A DNA stretch of 64,000 nucleotides, from IMG/VR virus record IMGVR_UViG_3300017764_000001; one strand, 5' to 3'. The notes under the pieces were generated by a model. That model did not search any database and was not told the origin of the DNA. It saw nothing but the letters and a program-made list of their open reading frames with translations. Positions 22,706 through 52,258 of the stretch are shown in pieces (the first letter of the stretch is position 1; the number at the start of each line of letters is the position of its first letter). The position numbers and the translations under genes are program-made. The stretch is from a virus (lineage: Duplodnaviria; Caudoviricetes).

Positions 22706-24193
22706 ATGGCAAAGTTAAGAGTTGGATTTGGTTCTGATTTTAATATTACAGGACAAAAGGTAGGTCTTGGAACCGCAAATCCAACTGCTCTTTTAGAAGT
22801 TGCCGAAACTGCCAAGGCAGATTTTAATATTACCGGTGTCACAACACTGACATCTTATGGTGGTTTTGTAGCACAGAATCAAAATATTACAGAACCAACA
22901 ACGATCAAGAGAACGATAAGTAAATCAGGAACTCTTGATAGTGTAAATGAAAGAGAAACTGGATTTACAGAACTTGGTGGTGTTCATCACGGTGATGATC
23001 AATATTTCAATACACTTTCAGAAGATCTTGTCGTAGAAGACGGAAAGATTTTCAGTATTCATAATACTGAAATGGTTGGTTCTACAACTATTGGTGAACA
23101 GGATCCACACACTCATGCATCACATGTCTCTGCAGGATCACTGGAACAAGTATCAGTCACCGGACACTTTTCTGTTCCTTGTGGTGGAATTAATGAAAGG
23201 CAAGAAACACTAATCGAAGGAACCGTAAGATTCAATGATGATTTGAATACACTTGAGTTCTTCAATGGAAATGAATGGAGACAATTTACTTATAATCAAG
23301 GACAAAGTGGTCGTGCCGTTTTCTCTGGTGGTGAATCTGGTGGATCGAATACACAGATACAGGCAATTGATTATTATAATATACACACTACTGGAAATGC
23401 ACTTAATTTTGGTAATGCAACTATCACCGAATCAAGAAAAGCAGGGTGTGCTTCCGCAACTAGAGGATTATCTGGTGGATCTGATGATACAAGTAACGAT
23501 AGTACTATTGATTATGTAACCATTGCATCAACAGGAGATGCAATTGATTTTGGAGATTTGTATAATGGTAGAGGCACATCTGCATCAATGTCATCATCGA
23601 CTCGTGGACTTTGGGCAGCAGGAAGATCTCCAACTAATCAAGATACAATAGATTATGTAGAAATAGCAACTCTTGGAAATGCACTAGATTTTGGTGATAC
23701 AACAGTTGCACGACAATGGTTGGCAGGTTGCTCTAGTTCAACAAGAGGAATTATTGCCGGAGGAGAATCTCCATCCTTTGCGTCTCCAACTAGAACTTCA
23801 AGAATAGAATATATAACCATGGCATCAAAAGGTGATGCAATTTTATTTGGAGAGTTGACGGGTATTACTGGCAATCCTGGGGGTTGTTCTAATTCAACAA
23901 GAGGATTTTTTGGTGGTGGTGAGCCATCAGCACAGAGTAAGATAGATATGATTACAATTGCATCAACCGGAAATGCCATTCGTTTTGGAGAACTAACTGT
24001 TGCCAGACTTACAGTAAATGGTGCTGGTAGTCAAACTCGTGGAACATTTTTAGGTGGACATTATAATTTGAATGTAATTGATTACATCACAATGTCAACA
24101 GAGGGAGATGCAATAGATTTTGGAGACTTAACTATAGGTAGGTGGTCAGGTGCATCATTATCAGATTCTCACGGTGGTTTAGGAGGTTTCTAA
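22706..24193 (+). CDS. Array paralogue P1: six Kelch-like repeats, intact neck motif, SDSHGGLGGF tail
   Basis: Six TRG.F.GG...IDY.TIASTG.A.DFGDL units; VPCGGINERQ...GTVRFNDDLNTLEFFNGNEW. Confidence 0.8.
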   Translation: MAKLRVGFGSDFNITGQKVGLGTANPTALLEVAETAKADFNITGVTTLTSYGGFVAQNQNITEPTTIKRTISKSGTLDSVNERETGFTELGGVHHGDDQYFNTLSEDLVVEDGKIFSIHNTEMVGSTTIGEQDPHTHASHVSAGSLEQVSVTGHFSVPCGGINERQETLIEGTVRFNDDLNTLEFFNGNEWRQFTYNQGQSGRAVFSGGESGGSNTQIQAIDYYNIHTTGNALNFGNATITESRKAGCASATRGLSGGSDDTSNDSTIDYVTIASTGDAIDFGDLYNGRGTSASMSSSTRGLWAAGRSPTNQDTIDYVEIATLGNALDFGDTTVARQWLAGCSSSTRGIIAGGESPSFASPTRTSRIEYITMASKGDAILFGELTGITGNPGGCSNSTRGFFGGGEPSAQSKIDMITIASTGNAIRFGELTVARLTVNGAGSQTRGTFLGGHYNLNVIDYITMSTEGDAIDFGDLTIGRWSGASLSDSHGGLGGF

Positions 24194-24194
24194 G

Positions 24195-50015: not shown

Positions 50016-51050
50016 ATGTCAGAGATTAAGGTAAACAATATACAAGGTTTAGAAGGAACTCATGGTCCTGTAATTTCTGGCACTGTTGAGATGAACTCTA
50101 CTGGTGCAATGTCACTACCAAGAGGTGATACCACCTATCGTGGTAGTAGAGGAACTGGTATCTTTGCCGGTGGTAGAACACCAACAGGTCTCAAAGAGGG
50201 GATGGATAAATTTACCATCTCTACTTTAGGTAATGGTCTTGATTTTGGCAATTTAACTACTGTAACGGCAGAATTTGGTGGTTGTGCATCATCTACTCGT
50301 GGTATCTTCATGGGTGGTGAACAATTTCCTGCCAATATCAATACCATACAATATCTTACAATATCTCAACTTGGAAATACTTTTGACTTTGGAGACTTAA
50401 CTTCGGTAAGAAGAGCAAATACTTGTCTATCTAATAATGTTAGAGGTATTTCACTAGGAGGAAATACCTCACCAGACACAGGTGCTGGAGGTAAAACTGA
50501 TATTGATTATATAACTATTGCAACAACAGGAAATTCATCCAAGTTTGGAGATTTGACAACAGATTCATCATATGGTATGGCAGGTGCGTCAACAACCAGA
50601 GGAATCATTGCACTAGGAAATAATCCATTTATATCTCCATTTGGACTATATACAAATATAGTGGAGTATATAACAATATCTACTGAAGGCAATGCACAAG
50701 ACTTTGGAGATTTGACAGTATCAAGAAGAGAAGGTGCAGGTGCTTCTAATTCCACAAGAGCAGTAATTTTTGGAGGAAATCAATCTCCAAATACTACAAA
50801 TGTTATTGATTATATGACGATTGCAAGTCTTGGTGATGCAATAGATTTTGGTGATTGTATTAATGGAAGTTCTTTATCAAATGCGTGTTCTTCACCAACT
50901 AGAGCAATTTTTGGTGATATGACTAGTGATGGTGATTCTGTTTCATATGTAACTATTAACACTCTCGGAAATGCACAAGATTTTGGTAATCTAGATCTTG
51001 CAAGAAATCAAACTGCTGGTTTTTCTGATTCACATGGAGGTATAGGATAA
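50016..51050 (+). CDS. Array paralogue P17: first-half neck plus propeller, SDSHGGIG tail
   Basis: SLPRGDTTYRGSRG; ATAAATA at 49989-49995. Confidence 0.8.
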   Translation: MSEIKVNNIQGLEGTHGPVISGTVEMNSTGAMSLPRGDTTYRGSRGTGIFAGGRTPTGLKEGMDKFTISTLGNGLDFGNLTTVTAEFGGCASSTRGIFMGGEQFPANINTIQYLTISQLGNTFDFGDLTSVRRANTCLSNNVRGISLGGNTSPDTGAGGKTDIDYITIATTGNSSKFGDLTTDSSYGMAGASTTRGIIALGNNPFISPFGLYTNIVEYITISTEGNAQDFGDLTVSRREGAGASNSTRAVIFGGNQSPNTTNVIDYMTIASLGDAIDFGDCINGSSLSNACSSPTRAIFGDMTSDGDSVSYVTINTLGNAQDFGNLDLARNQTAGFSDSHGGIG

Positions 51051-52258
51051 TGGGATACGGTGGCGGCGGTGGAGGAGGCGGTGGAGGCGGTGGTGGCTCC
51101 GGCGGTTCTGGTGGTTCTGGTGGAGCAGGAGGTGGTGGTGGAGGTTACACCACAGTAGGAGGTGGAAGTGCCTTCGGTGGAAGTGATGATTTTGAACTTC
51201 CCTCTTACAATCAAGCACCCGCAGGATCAATCAGATTTAATACTGACTCCAAGAAATTAGAAGTTTACATACTCGGACCCGTTTCTGATGGAGTAACTCC
51301 CAACGGAATATGGATGGAAGTTGATAGTTGGTCACCAGATTTATTGACTGGTGGAACTCGTGGATTAATGATGGGTGGATACAATCCAAGTAATACATAT
51401 TTGGATGAAATTGTTTATATTAATATAGCAACAACCGGAGATTCACTATCTTTTGGCGAATTAACGGTATCTGATAGAAATCATGTTAACATGGGAACTT
51501 CTGACAGAACTAGAGCAATTTCTGCTGGTGGTCAAAAACCTGGTGCTATTGTATCTGATATTGAATATGTAACCATGGCATCTACTGGAGATGCAGTAGA
51601 TTTTGGTGCAGATTTAACAGGAACAAAATATGGTGGAGGATCTTTATCAAATGGCACCCGAGGAATATTCATGGGTGGACATCCAGGTAGTGAAGGAACT
51701 GATGTTATTGATTATATTACCATAGCATCAACAGGTGTTGCTGCACAAGATTTTGGAAATTTAACTCAGTCATCTCAGTATCCTGCCGCAACAATGTGTT
51801 CTTCTACTCGTGGAGTGTATGCAGGTGGTAGATCTCATCCAAATTATTATACTAATATTGAGTTTATAACAATGTCAACGCAGGGAAATTCTGCAGACTT
51901 TGGTGATTTAACTTACGGCAGGGGGCATGGCACCCAAGGAATAACTTCTAATTCAGTTCGTGGAATAATTGCGGGTGGATATGCAGTCCCTACATATTAT
52001 AATTATATTGATTATATTACGATTCCGACTCTTGGTAATGCAACTGATTTCGGAGATTTACTCTCTGTAAGAGGAGCATCAATGGGGGTATCATCTTCCA
52101 CAAGATGTGTTGTAATGGGGGGAGCAGCACCTAGTTATACCGATCAAATTCAGTATGTTCAAATTATGAGCACTGGAGATGCAGTTGATTTTGGTAATTT
52201 AAACACGCAAATTACTGCTTGGGGTGCAGGAGCATCCAACGGTCACGGTGGATTGTAA
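51050..52258 (+). CDS. Array paralogue P18: poly-Gly N-terminus, second-half neck plus propeller, SNGHGGL tail
   Basis: MGYGGGGGGGGGGGGSGG...; APAGSIRFNTDSKKLEVY; TAATG overlap with P17. Confidence 0.8.
   Translation: MGYGGGGGGGGGGGGGSGGSGGSGGAGGGGGGYTTVGGGSAFGGSDDFELPSYNQAPAGSIRFNTDSKKLEVYILGPVSDGVTPNGIWMEVDSWSPDLLTGGTRGLMMGGYNPSNTYLDEIVYINIATTGDSLSFGELTVSDRNHVNMGTSDRTRAISAGGQKPGAIVSDIEYVTMASTGDAVDFGADLTGTKYGGGSLSNGTRGIFMGGHPGSEGTDVIDYITIASTGVAAQDFGNLTQSSQYPAATMCSSTRGVYAGGRSHPNYYTNIEFITMSTQGNSADFGDLTYGRGHGTQGITSNSVRGIIAGGYAVPTYYNYIDYITIPTLGNATDFGDLLSVRGASMGVSSSTRCVVMGGAAPSYTDQIQYVQIMSTGDAVDFGNLNTQITAWGAGASNGHGGL

Follow-up and report, generated by a model that had tools for sequence, protein, structure and literature searches.

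Eighteen tandem genes of a marine T4-like cyanophage, each encoding a C-terminal domain of six repeats that is predicted to fold as a Kelch-like propeller, are on balance best read as a late-expressed repertoire of virion-attached, host-binding proteins that may be modified after translation. They lie in two blocks of nine directly downstream of genes for tail and baseplate components. Several of their short predicted anchors are conserved while the loops of their propellers diverge quickly, and related propellers recur in the tail or fibre clusters of unrelated phages.

Layout and expression signals of the array

In the window, that is, the whole 64,000-nucleotide stretch of DNA analysed, the ORF map contains 22 contiguous plus-strand ORFs spanning 22706-52258. 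The propeller genes, all on the plus strand, form two blocks (22706-38707 and 42078-52258) around four other genes. The preliminary description had assigned about 46% of the window to propeller paralogues, a figure inflated by these four genes; without them, the propeller genes amount to 26.2 kb (41%). It had also placed three giant fibre genes directly 5' of the array, which is borne out by PHROG matches to tail fiber protein, baseplate wedge subunit/initiator and virion structural protein. In the list below, motif A is 'PSG.T..R' and motif B 'G.IRFNTDS..LE..W', both N-terminal anchors of fibre type; every propeller has six blades, and "tail" is its C-terminal S[DN]xHGG motif.

9220-22671, +, three giant fibre/baseplate-type genes directly upstream of the array
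9220-11559, +, giant gene 1, 779 aa
11576-18928, +, giant gene 2, 2450 aa
18964-22671, +, giant gene 3, 1235 aa
22706-24193, +, P1, 495 aa; 188-aa N-terminal region, propeller, SDSHGG tail; own NTAAATA box at -30
24195-26318, +, P2, 707 aa; Laminin_G_3, propeller, tail; starts 1 nt past the P1 stop
26350-27774, +, P3, 474 aa; 142-aa N-terminal region, propeller, tail; own promoter-like box
27776-30937, +, P4, 1053 aa; two Laminin_G_3, propeller, tail
30960-32021, +, P5, 353 aa; short anchor with RFN[ST]DS..LE..W motif, propeller, tail
32025-34439, +, P6, 804 aa; two Laminin_G_3, propeller, tail
34461-35471, +, P7, 336 aa; short RFNTDS anchor, propeller, tail; the protein modelled by AF2
35471-37660, +, P8, 729 aa; CBM_4_9 and Laminin_G_3, propeller, tail
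37682-38707, +, P9, 341 aa; short RFNTDS anchor, propeller, tail
38767-39693, +, cc, helical partner protein, 308 aa; all-helical, conserved
39695-40417, +, GT-A-like protein, 240 aa; phrog_1574; DxD-type 'DADI' motif
40424-41200, +, Thr/Ser/Val-rich protein, 258 aa
41283-42074, +, sulfotransferase, 263 aa; Pfam Sulfotransfer_3, 2.6e-18
42078-43238, +, P10, 386 aa; 76-aa anchor with motifs A and B, propeller, tail
43241-44398, +, P11, 385 aa; anchor with motifs A and B, propeller, tail
44401-45546, +, P12, 381 aa; anchor with motifs A and B, propeller, tail
45572-46618, +, P13, 348 aa; motif B anchor, propeller, tail
46618-47682, +, P14, 354 aa; motif A anchor, propeller, tail
47682-48806, +, P15, 374 aa; motif B anchor, propeller, tail
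48838-49992, +, P16, 384 aa; Gly/Ser-rich N-terminus with motif A, propeller, tail
50016-51050, +, P17, 344 aa; motif A anchor, propeller, tail
51050-52258, +, P18, 402 aa; Gly-rich N-terminus with motif B, propeller, tail
52259-54427, -, convergent operon of a 2OG-FeII_Oxy_3 oxygenase, a radical SAM/SPASM protein and a 2OG-FeII_Oxy_5 oxygenase (Pfam)

The earlier labelling of the genes as late-type agrees with their upstream signals. NTAAATA boxes of late type are found at -25 to -42 ahead of nine of the 18 array genes, with about one expected by chance on a rough count, and the other nine abut or overlap the preceding stop codon. Transcription of the array would be late, starting from approximately nine boxes, with the genes grouped in short units coupled in translation. 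Contigs from three marine RNA libraries also contain segments identical to parts of the array, and contaminating DNA is a possible source of these contigs.

Repeat conservation, predicted fold and divergence

A repeat HMM trained on 36 seed repeats and applied to the ORFs of the window recovered exactly six repeats in each of the 18 proteins (108 blades), upholding the six-repeat C-terminal domain proposed for all of them. The independent E-value is at most 1e-9 for all but one repeat (107/108), the exception being blade 4 of P9 at 6e-5, while neither the four middle ORFs (38767-42074) nor the upstream fibre genes contain any. Repeat envelopes measure 42-56 aa, typically around 47 aa. At the DNA level, a 54-nt repeat core occurs 100 times, with a period of ~141-156 nt inside each propeller domain. 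Blades within one protein are unusually similar (~42% identical). All 18 proteins terminate, as had been claimed, in the tail motif, here S[DN][SGA]HGG followed by one to four residues; in alignment, this motif matches the beginning of a seventh blade, and it probably serves to close the propeller ring.

Column conservation and entropy over the 108 blades bear out the described pattern of a conserved scaffold with variable loops after GG. The scaffold is marked by R11 (96%), the GG pair (78% and 89%), I26 (80%), Y28 (78%), G35 (100%), F40 (98%) and G41 (96%), while variability within the blade peaks in the loop after GG, with entropy mostly between 2.7 and 3.7 bits and insertions of up to 10 aa. 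Across the 18 paralogues, the invariant columns comprise scaffold Gly, Arg, Phe and Tyr, one Asp, and the Ser and His of the tail, and no conserved polar cluster was found in their loops.

Structure prediction supports the proposed Kelch-like reading at the level of the predicted fold. The AF2 model of P7, a propeller with a short anchor, is all-beta (pLDDT 74, pTM 0.76), and its best 50 Foldseek matches in the PDB are natural Kelch domains, including KLHL12, Keap1 and PfK13, or designed Kelch-like SAKe proteins (TM 0.79-0.84, E 1e-15 to 1e-17, rmsd 2.1-3.2 Å). Structure searches of AFDB and BFVD agree with the Kelch match. The model thus supports a predicted closed six-bladed propeller of four-stranded antiparallel blades. 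At the sequence level, the Pfam Kelch models (Kelch_1-6) gave no match even at E<=1 in the eight proteins tested, a PDB profile search matched nothing relevant, and no Pfam or NCBIfam model detects the domain. Of the columns of the Kelch signature, the Arg, the GG pair and the Tyr are among the scaffold positions listed above, while the Trp is replaced by Phe (98%). In the Kelch topology, the loops after GG (B-C) and between blades (D-A) sit on the ligand-binding face, and by this analogy the variable loops would be placed on one face of the propeller.

The 9+9 array is syntenic in close relatives. Against relatives with 88-95% identity in the neighbouring genes, propeller orthologues at corresponding positions share only 44-77%. 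Synonymous divergence is similar in the two groups, with dS of 0.39-1.39 for the genes encoding cc, the GT-like protein, the sulfotransferase, the oxygenases and the radical SAM protein and 0.43-0.97 for the propellers, whereas dN is 0.03-0.07 in the former and 0.18-0.41 in the latter. Surface-loop diversification, whose absence the preliminary description had named as a ground for dropping its reading, is supported: pooled over 15 orthologue pairs, dN/dS is 0.28 for the scaffold, 0.42 for the N-terminal regions and 0.80 for the loops, a loop value that may be inflated by alignment error and saturation (loop dN up to ~0.9), against 0.05-0.12 in neighbouring genes. Gene-wide dN/dS of the propellers stays below 1, and the loop value would fit relaxed constraint as well as positive selection. 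Several short anchors have a dN of only 0.02-0.13, compared with a pooled loop dN of 0.68. Such a conserved N-terminal anchor joined to a fast-diverging distal domain matches the pattern of phage receptor-binding proteins and tail-fibre adhesins.

Distribution and gene neighbourhood

The propeller family comprises 11,390 representative clusters (50% identity) at E<=1e-3 and 4,513 at E<=1e-30, all of them named "hypothetical". Its ESM Atlas clusters are labelled 100% viruses, with a phylum recorded for only 7-28 members per cluster, so that the domain appears to define a very large and hitherto nameless family, virus-only where classified. No canonical member occurs in any cultured phage of a 50,697-record collection, in which a divergent subfamily lacking the HGG tail is found in S-SKS1 only. 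A stretch containing the middle of the array is present in 14 marine DNA runs, mostly viral-fraction metagenomes, and the phage lineage is therefore widespread. Short-read assemblies break at the array, with contigs ending at ~1 kb and paralogues joined into chimeras; metagenomes therefore probably contain more such repertoires than are counted.

In IMG/VR contigs of 33-62% GC, one to three propeller genes are directly followed by cc, which is found in 60 of the 74 informative loci and in 52 of these 60 begins fewer than 400 nt downstream of a propeller gene, making it a near-obligate partner. The AF2 model of cc is all-helical (pLDDT 82) and gave no convincing fold match in the PDB. A GT-A-like gene follows cc in 35 loci; its assignment as a glycosyltransferase is weak because the protein has no Pfam, NCBIfam or PDB sequence match. 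Partial homologues of the Thr/Ser/Val-rich protein were found in 13 loci, and the radical SAM gene is restricted to three close relatives. Sulfotransferase homologues adjoin propellers in 15 loci and the two 2OG oxygenases in 18-19 of 80, distant low-GC phages being included in both cases. This enzyme linkage extends to lineages with enzyme identity of only 25-50% and to a Pelagibacteraceae single-cell contig. Specifically in the array lineage, a widespread phage module may have been amplified to 9+9 propeller genes. The order in this module would be propeller(s), helical partner and GT-A-like protein, with or without the sulfotransferase and the two 2OG oxygenases.

The association of propellers with tail or fibre genes recurs in unrelated phages. 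The module is located in tail/fibre clusters of complete ~64-kb phages too, in which neither of the two markers searched, psbA and gp48, was found. For example, a complete 63-kb phage with direct terminal repeats (L065) encodes, in order, a tape measure, a 589-aa protein, a propeller, cc and a 1681-aa protein, and in one contig (L054) two giant collagen-like fibres flank a double propeller, cc, a GT and then a convergent pair of 2OG oxygenase genes. Propellers are fused at the N-terminus to LamG, CBM and fn3 domains, and one N-terminal motif is common to an S-SSM7 protein annotated as tail fibre. Neither BTB nor BACK is found, as the N-terminal regions give Laminin_G_3, CBM_4_9 or nothing in Pfam.

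Candidate roles and comparison with known systems

Taken together, each of the 18 proteins may be a modular structural binding protein composed of an N-terminal part, a propeller and the S[DN]xHGG tail. The N-terminal part would be either a short fibre-type anchor (motif A and/or B) or a long region with ConA-like (LamG) or CBM lectin-type domains, while the propeller strands would be held constant and the B-C and D-A loops left to evolve almost freely. Most likely, the propellers would attach to the tail or the fibres, from where they could bind variable host surface structures and so widen or hedge the host range, and the co-encoded enzymes may modify propellers or fibres. Both virion attachment and adhesin or lectin activity are inferred here from sequence and gene context. 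Tentatively, and with considerably less confidence, it could be speculated that the propeller acts together with the helical partner, the GT-A-like protein, the two 2OG oxygenases and the sulfotransferase as a self-contained phage system building hydroxylated, then sulfated or glycosylated, hypervariable Kelch-fold receptor-binding proteins. This would be a new and very widespread host-recognition device of aquatic viruses, amplified to 18 copies here for many picocyanobacterial surface types.

The linked enzymes also allow a different reading, in which the propellers mainly carry modifications, as a hydroxylated, sulfated and/or glycosylated decoration coating fibres or tail. Such a coat could act as a shield, prevent aggregation or mimic surface chemistry, and its loop variation would be tolerated rather than serve specific receptor binding. 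This we regard as unlikely, though it is the strongest of the rivals. It draws on the recurrence of oxygenases, sulfotransferase and GT-A-like gene across divergent lineages; on the assignment by Pfam to 2OG-FeII_Oxy_3, which we take to be a prolyl-hydroxylase-like family, 2OG-FeII_Oxy_5 and Sulfotransfer_3; and on the Pro found at loop position 20 in 58% of blades. A proposal made for operons of like kind (Iyer et al. 2010, PMC2938197) points the same way. The enzymes could, however, act instead on the giant fibres, the Thr-rich protein or host molecules, and no modification site was identified in the propellers. Moreover, hypervariable loops on conserved anchors are the classic pattern of receptor-binding proteins, and the LamG and CBM fusions likewise point to binding.

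Two further readings turn on what Kelch and related folds do elsewhere. The Kelch fold is typically a platform for protein-protein interaction, eukaryotic and poxvirus Kelch domains are mostly intracellular adaptors, and rapid loop evolution also fits an arms race with host proteins, so that the paralogues could be poxvirus-like, non-structural adaptors aimed at different host targets or defences. We consider this improbable, as Pfam detects neither BTB nor BACK nor any other effector domain, the genes sit within fibre/tail-tip clusters of unrelated phages, their N-termini bear fibre-type motifs and lectin-type domains, and the upstream boxes are of late type. Several carbohydrate-active enzymes are six-bladed propellers and phage tail proteins are often depolymerases; 'galactose oxidase' annotations also appear among the weak BFVD matches. 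Yet virion-borne enzymes that degrade or modify glycans, of sialidase, NanM or galactose-oxidase type, are very unlikely here, since the invariant residues are those of the scaffold plus the tail Ser and His, the loops have no conserved polar cluster, and conservation within the domain is lowest on the putative binding face.

Like the Kelch domains of KLHL12, Keap1 and Plasmodium K13, the array propellers have six four-stranded blades of 44-56 aa (TM 0.80-0.84 for the predicted structure) and follow a comparable motif logic, with an Arg, GG closing a hydrophobic strand, and then one strand marked by Tyr and another by an aromatic residue. However, identity is 10-15%, and Trp is replaced by a near-invariant Phe in a 'GNA.DFG' motif. 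Unlike BTB-Kelch proteins, they lack BTB/BACK and have mutually similar blades and the S[DN]xHGG C-terminus. Phages of the CBA120, G7C and PhiK64-1 type carry several tailspikes or fibres per virion, which are thought to widen host range, and resemble the array in that paralogous tail genes stand in tandem and encode proteins whose N-terminal anchors are conserved while the distal domains diverge. Their proteins are beta-helix tailspikes or depolymerases, not known to exceed about eleven, whereas the array encodes 18 Kelch-fold propellers of inferred virion attachment.

Phage-encoded six-bladed Kelch-type propellers are also found in jumbo phages (CBB_550/552/554 and proteins of PhiPA3, Noxifer and BcepSaruman). 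The Kelch-domain protein CBB_552 was detected by mass spectrometry in CBB virions (PMC5259590), and some of the others are annotated as virion structural. Their likeness to the array is structural only (11-18% identity, TM 0.6-0.84); they are encoded by one to three genes rather than 18, and no HGG tail or helical partner is reported. As in the operons for which Iyer et al. 2010 predicted hydroxylation and then sulfation of co-encoded collagen-like/tail-collar proteins (PMC2938197), 2OG-Fe(II) oxygenases and a sulfotransferase are encoded with fibre-like structural proteins. Here, by contrast, Kelch-fold propellers and a helical protein recur as the non-enzymatic partners, in the setting of phage tail modules, with a GT-A-like protein and, in the array lineage, a radical SAM/SPASM enzyme in addition. 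The nearest isolate, S-SKS1 (Llyrvirus; ~72-76% DNA identity in core genes), encodes six ORFs with related repeats (phrog_19111) and a sulfotransferase in the syntenic region after its fibre genes. Its propeller-like proteins share ~27% identity, bear the signature 'IDR.DFSNET' and lack the HGG tail, and tblastn found no cc homologue in S-SKS1.

Little is understood of how marine cyanomyoviruses recognise their hosts, and most of their receptor-binding proteins lack an assignment. A virus-only family of more than 11,000 clusters, outside every Pfam, NCBIfam or named PHROG model, is now defined; its fold is predicted, its members share a hallmark motif at the C-terminus, and its gene neighbourhood is conserved. 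Should the linked enzymes modify the propellers, phage-encoded modification of virions would extend well beyond the mycobacteriophage glycosylation case. The propellers evolve in the manner expected of host-range determinants, and with 18 genes and ~26 kb, the array would, to our knowledge, exceed in size every other candidate set of binding proteins in a phage.

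Architecture and predicted fold of the array

The region 22706-52258 is filled by 22 back-to-back plus-strand open reading frames (ORFs), comprising the 18 propeller genes (P1-P18) and four genes between them, and is followed by a minus-strand operon:

22706-38707, plus strand, block I (propeller genes P1-P9)
38767-42074, plus strand, middle cassette (cc, GT-A-like, Thr/Ser/Val-rich and sulfotransferase genes)
38767-39693, plus strand, cc, encoding a helical protein
40424-41200, plus strand, gene for a Thr/Ser/Val-rich, mucin-like protein, directly after the GT-A-like gene
42078-52258, plus strand, block II (P10-P18)
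52259-54427, minus strand, operon of two 2OG-Fe(II) oxygenase genes flanking a radical SAM/SPASM gene
52864-53793, minus strand, the radical SAM/SPASM gene

A hidden Markov model (HMM) built on 36 seed repeats detected exactly six C-terminal repeats, or blades, in each of the 18 ORFs and none in the four middle ORFs or the fibre genes, and the C-terminus of each of the 18 proteins is S[DN][SGA]HGG plus one to four residues. The tandem array of six-repeat C-terminal domains with a shared S[DN]xHGG tail, as claimed in the preliminary description, is therefore upheld, while its figure of 46% of the window holds if the four non-propeller genes are counted and falls to 41% for the propeller genes alone. 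Measured against the domain of P7, the alignment reference row, the C-terminal domains of the 18 genes show 37-47% identity. Across the 108 blades, R11, the GG pair, I26, Y28, G35, F40 and G41 are conserved at 78-100%, and the most variable positions are the eight following GG, where entropy is mostly 2.7-3.7 bits and insertions reach 10 residues; the per-position entropy thus agrees with the earlier claim of a conserved scaffold with widely varying loops. At the DNA level, the repeat core occurs 100 times, with a period of ~141-156 nt inside each propeller domain. The array is real and far beyond chance.

Blades inside one protein are ~42% identical to one another, and blades of the same index across paralogues are barely more alike than those of different index (0.44 versus 0.415 identity), so that the duplication order is not readable from the blades. 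Such uniformity is unusual for a Kelch propeller and points to strong, equal constraint on each blade or to concerted evolution. P16 (48838-48945) and P18 (51050-51145) have long N-terminal Gly/Ser-rich low-complexity stretches of the GGGGSGG type, which the other paralogues lack.

The AlphaFold2 model obtained from the 18-paralogue alignment is all-beta (pLDDT 74, pTM 0.76), and the 50 PDB entries closest to it are Kelch domains with six blades or Kelch-like designs (KLHL12, Keap1, KLHL3, Plasmodium K13, SAKe) with TM 0.79-0.84, rmsd 2.1-3.2 Å, E 1e-15 to 1e-17 and 10-15% identity. A search of AFDB clusters with the model likewise gave Kelch. None of the Pfam models (Kelch included) or NCBIfam models matches the domain, and a PDB sequence search gave no meaningful match. 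The blades have the motif logic of Kelch (Arg, a hydrophobic strand with GG at its end, a strand with Tyr and one with an aromatic residue), yet carry Phe where Kelch has Trp. Thus, the domain is Kelch-like in predicted fold and motif logic, in line with what had been proposed from the repeats, yet outside the reach of curated Kelch models. In Kelch propellers, the B-C and D-A loops together make the ligand-binding face, and the loop after GG in the array blades is presumably the B-C loop.

Two short N-terminal motifs occur, singly or together, in the small members, and PHROG and tblastn comparisons tie them to proteins of many cyanomyoviruses, including an annotated tail fibre of S-SSM7; searched against the PDB, the N-terminal motif gave only SRCR matches, which were dismissed as spurious. 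The large members carry Laminin_G_3 or CBM_4_9 domains, and in other phage lineages the same propeller follows different N-termini. Such a modular design, with swapped N-termini, is typical of tail adhesins. A C-terminal motif, MSSASSATV... (18880-18928, 22620-22671), is shared by the two largest fibre proteins and may serve both in assembly or docking.

Source phage, propeller family and gene neighbourhood

The window is from a T4-like cyanomyovirus: it contains psbA, psbD, purM, thyX, phoH, gp32 and the baseplate genes gp53 and gp48, and its closest isolate is Synechococcus phage S-SKS1 (core genes at ~72-76% DNA identity). Among 50,697 phage records, part of the array had no megablast match, P13 and the cc protein had none in tblastn, and P10 found S-SKS1 only, plus matches to the N-terminal motif. 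S-SKS1 is also the only cultured phage in these records with a propeller subfamily, a divergent one that differs from the array in its ~27% identity, its other repeat signature and its lack of the HGG tail. An 8-kb stretch that runs from the last part of block I through the four-gene cassette into block II was found in 14 marine DNA runs (mostly viral-fraction metagenomes, from nine coded studies), each with half or more of the words sampled from the stretch. Array pieces without a single mismatch are present in contigs from one viral-fraction metagenome and three marine RNA libraries. An assembly artefact was rejected on account of these contigs and runs. In run X1, virome short-read contigs matching 22700-42600 end at ~1-1.7 kb within the array, and many contain chimeric joints connecting different paralogues; metagenome assembly is therefore likely to break up or collapse such arrays.

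A profile of the 18 domains, searched against 1.84 billion representatives clustered at 50% identity, matched 11,390 clusters at E ≤ 1e-3 and 4,513 at E ≤ 1e-30. Every listed relative is named 'hypothetical', and the only Pfam domains on them are N-terminal Laminin_G_3, Laminin_G_2 or fn3. The ESM Atlas clusters of the family are labelled 100% viral, with phylum recorded for just 7-28 members per cluster. In IMG/VR, at least 576 stretches match, and the best 80 loci encode 157 six-blade proteins (the majority), 43 double propellers of 11-13 blades and one 18-blade protein; S[DN]xHGG lies at the end of 134 of these 157 six-blade proteins, one or two residues before the stop in 120. GC content ranges from 33 to 62% across all fetched loci, mostly the best 80, so the hosts must be diverse. 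The module is present in three complete genomes of ~63-65 kb, one with direct terminal repeats; psbA and gp48 were not found in them, the gp48 search matching nowhere, control genomes included.

Searching genome contigs with a single propeller protein gave only three loci, all in single-cell or metagenome-assembled genomes (MAGs). The double-propeller contigs filed as cellular (table) are probably phage DNA, and the SAR11 single cell among them (L089) gives a hint that the module's low-GC form has a pelagiphage host.

Double-propeller genes on contigs filed as cellular
L089: Pelagibacteraceae single-cell assembly AG-915-L05; double propeller, sulfotransferase and both oxygenases
L088: Pirellulales MAG, station ALOHA; double propeller and cc
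L087: Epulonipiscium single-cell assembly; double propeller and cc

In cyanophage S-RIM12 (L086, gp198-gp199), a protein with the same N-terminal anchor motifs adjoins a 464-aa protein whose BFVD model resembles the propeller (TM 0.69); at the corresponding position, other cyanomyoviruses may thus encode propellers that are very divergent. Cyanophage S-SCSM2R has a 'TolB' virion protein (PMC12801897), which was matched by neither the blade nor the domain HMM; it is outside the family and thus provides no proteomic support for it.

A cc homologue is present in 60 of 74 informative loci, and in 52 of those it starts less than 400 nt, usually less than 125 nt, from the end of a propeller gene. 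A GT-A-like protein follows cc in 35 loci, two 2OG-Fe(II) oxygenases adjoin propellers in 18-19 and a sulfotransferase does so in 15; the oxygenase/sulfotransferase loci include low-GC phages, whose enzymes are 25-50% identical to the window's, and the Pelagibacteraceae single-cell contig. The radical SAM/SPASM gene between the oxygenases is found only in three close relatives and is absent from the wider module. In the 63-kb phage with terminal repeats, the order is tape measure, 589-aa protein, propeller, cc and 1681-aa protein; another contig has a double propeller, cc, GT and two convergent 2OG oxygenase genes, all between two giant collagen-like fibres, and a third has the module among virion structural and tail-fibre genes. 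In the window, the three genes preceding the array match fibre, baseplate-wedge and virion-structural PHROGs, and the earlier placement of fibre genes directly upstream is borne out.

The cc model is a confident all-helical fold (pLDDT 82), for which Foldseek found nothing in the PDB at E ≤ 0.001 and AFDB only uncharacterised relatives. VIA-align matched it only to coiled-coil hairpins, which are generic and, at Z ~8, below the level meaningful for helical proteins. Interface prediction for cc with a full-length small propeller, run without control pairs, scored 0.00, which speaks neither for nor against binding. Sequence searches of Pfam, NCBIfam and the PDB found no match for the GT-A-like protein, whose label as a putative glycosyltransferase comes only from a DxD-type motif and the preliminary description. 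The Thr/Ser/Val-rich protein is a plausible O-glycosylation substrate.

Amplification, divergence and gene junctions

Most loci have one to three propeller genes, while contigs with a cc 82-94% identical to the window's have large arrays of the same plan. Block I and block II, of nine genes each, recur in two partial relatives, where gene lengths match and best hits fall mostly on the gene at the same position. The 9+9 array is a lineage-specific amplification. Compared with these relatives, cc, the GT-like protein, the sulfotransferase, the oxygenases and radical SAM are 88-95% identical (dN 0.03-0.07, dS 0.39-1.39, dN/dS 0.05-0.12), with the Thr-rich gene as the exception among the neighbours (61-66% identity, dN/dS 0.20 against the same relatives). 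This protein diverges fast, at 37-66% identity between relatives whose cc proteins are 82-94% identical. Positional propeller orthologues are only 44-77% identical at comparable dS (0.43-0.97), with dN of 0.18-0.41 and dN/dS of 0.37-0.50. When codons of 15 orthologue pairs were split by structural class and pooled (pairwise NG86 estimates), dN/dS was 0.28 for the scaffold, 0.42 for N-terminal regions and 0.80 for loops, where it exceeded 1 in four of the 15 pairs, loop alignments being uncertain and loop dN near saturation. The contrast between propellers and neighbours is large despite the caveats of NG86, alignment and saturation, and the surface loops are diversified, as had been supposed. 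Several short N-terminal anchors are nearly invariant between relatives, and a fixed anchor, a fixed scaffold and free loops are the pattern expected of host-recognition proteins.

An NTAAATA box lies 25-42 nt upstream of nine of the 18 array genes, as well as before cc and the third fibre gene, where a rough count gives a chance expectation of ~1 in that much upstream sequence. The boxes often overlap the preceding stop codon, and the remaining nine array genes overlap the preceding stop or start within 3 nt of it. This arrangement would fit late T4-type transcription of short coupled units, judging from the motif match. The three marine RNA libraries contain contigs with pieces identical to several array genes, for which DNA carry-over is possible.

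At junctions where the next start is within 3 nt (24150-24197, 32000-32027, 43215-43243, 44375-44403 and similar), the tail's His-Gly-Gly is encoded as CACGG[AT]GG, which puts a Shine-Dalgarno of the GGAGG or GGTGG type ~9-14 nt ahead of the next ATG, so that one stretch serves as protein motif and as ribosome-binding site for the gene downstream. At junctions with a promoter gap, the tail codons are CATGGTGG and the Shine-Dalgarno is separate. At 30935-30960, 34437-34461, 37658-37682 and 49990-50016, the late-type box and the preceding stop codon are fused, e.g., GGATAAATA. The junctions before 34461 and 37682 are near-identical across ~45 nt, and the short N-terminal anchors have a dS of 0.06-0.18 against relatives, compared with 0.4-1.5 in the propeller body; together, these features suggest conserved recombination junctions permitting cassette exchange.

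Role of the propellers

It appears somewhat probable that P1-P18 are late, virion-attached binding proteins whose variable face would recognise host surface structures, and the 18-member set would serve host-range breadth or bet-hedging. The hydroxylase, sulfotransferase and glycosyltransferase-like genes recurring beside the propellers suggest post-translational modification of propellers, fibres or the Thr-rich protein, as Iyer et al. proposed for similar operons (PMC2938197). The same recurrence speaks for modification as the propellers' main purpose, which is nevertheless considered unlikely. A role as intracellular Kelch-type effectors seems improbable, and one as enzymes very improbable. 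For binding proteins on the virion, jumbo phages offer a precedent in their virion Kelch proteins, such as CBB_552, found by mass spectrometry (PMC5259590); it is no more than a precedent.

Kelch-fold proteins in phages and multi-adhesin phages are already known, while the literature on Kelch or propeller proteins in cyanophages and on propeller receptor-binding proteins gave no description of the family, the tail motif, the partner gene or the array. The interest of the finding thus lies in the size of an unannotated family, its conserved module and its extreme amplification in a widespread marine phage.
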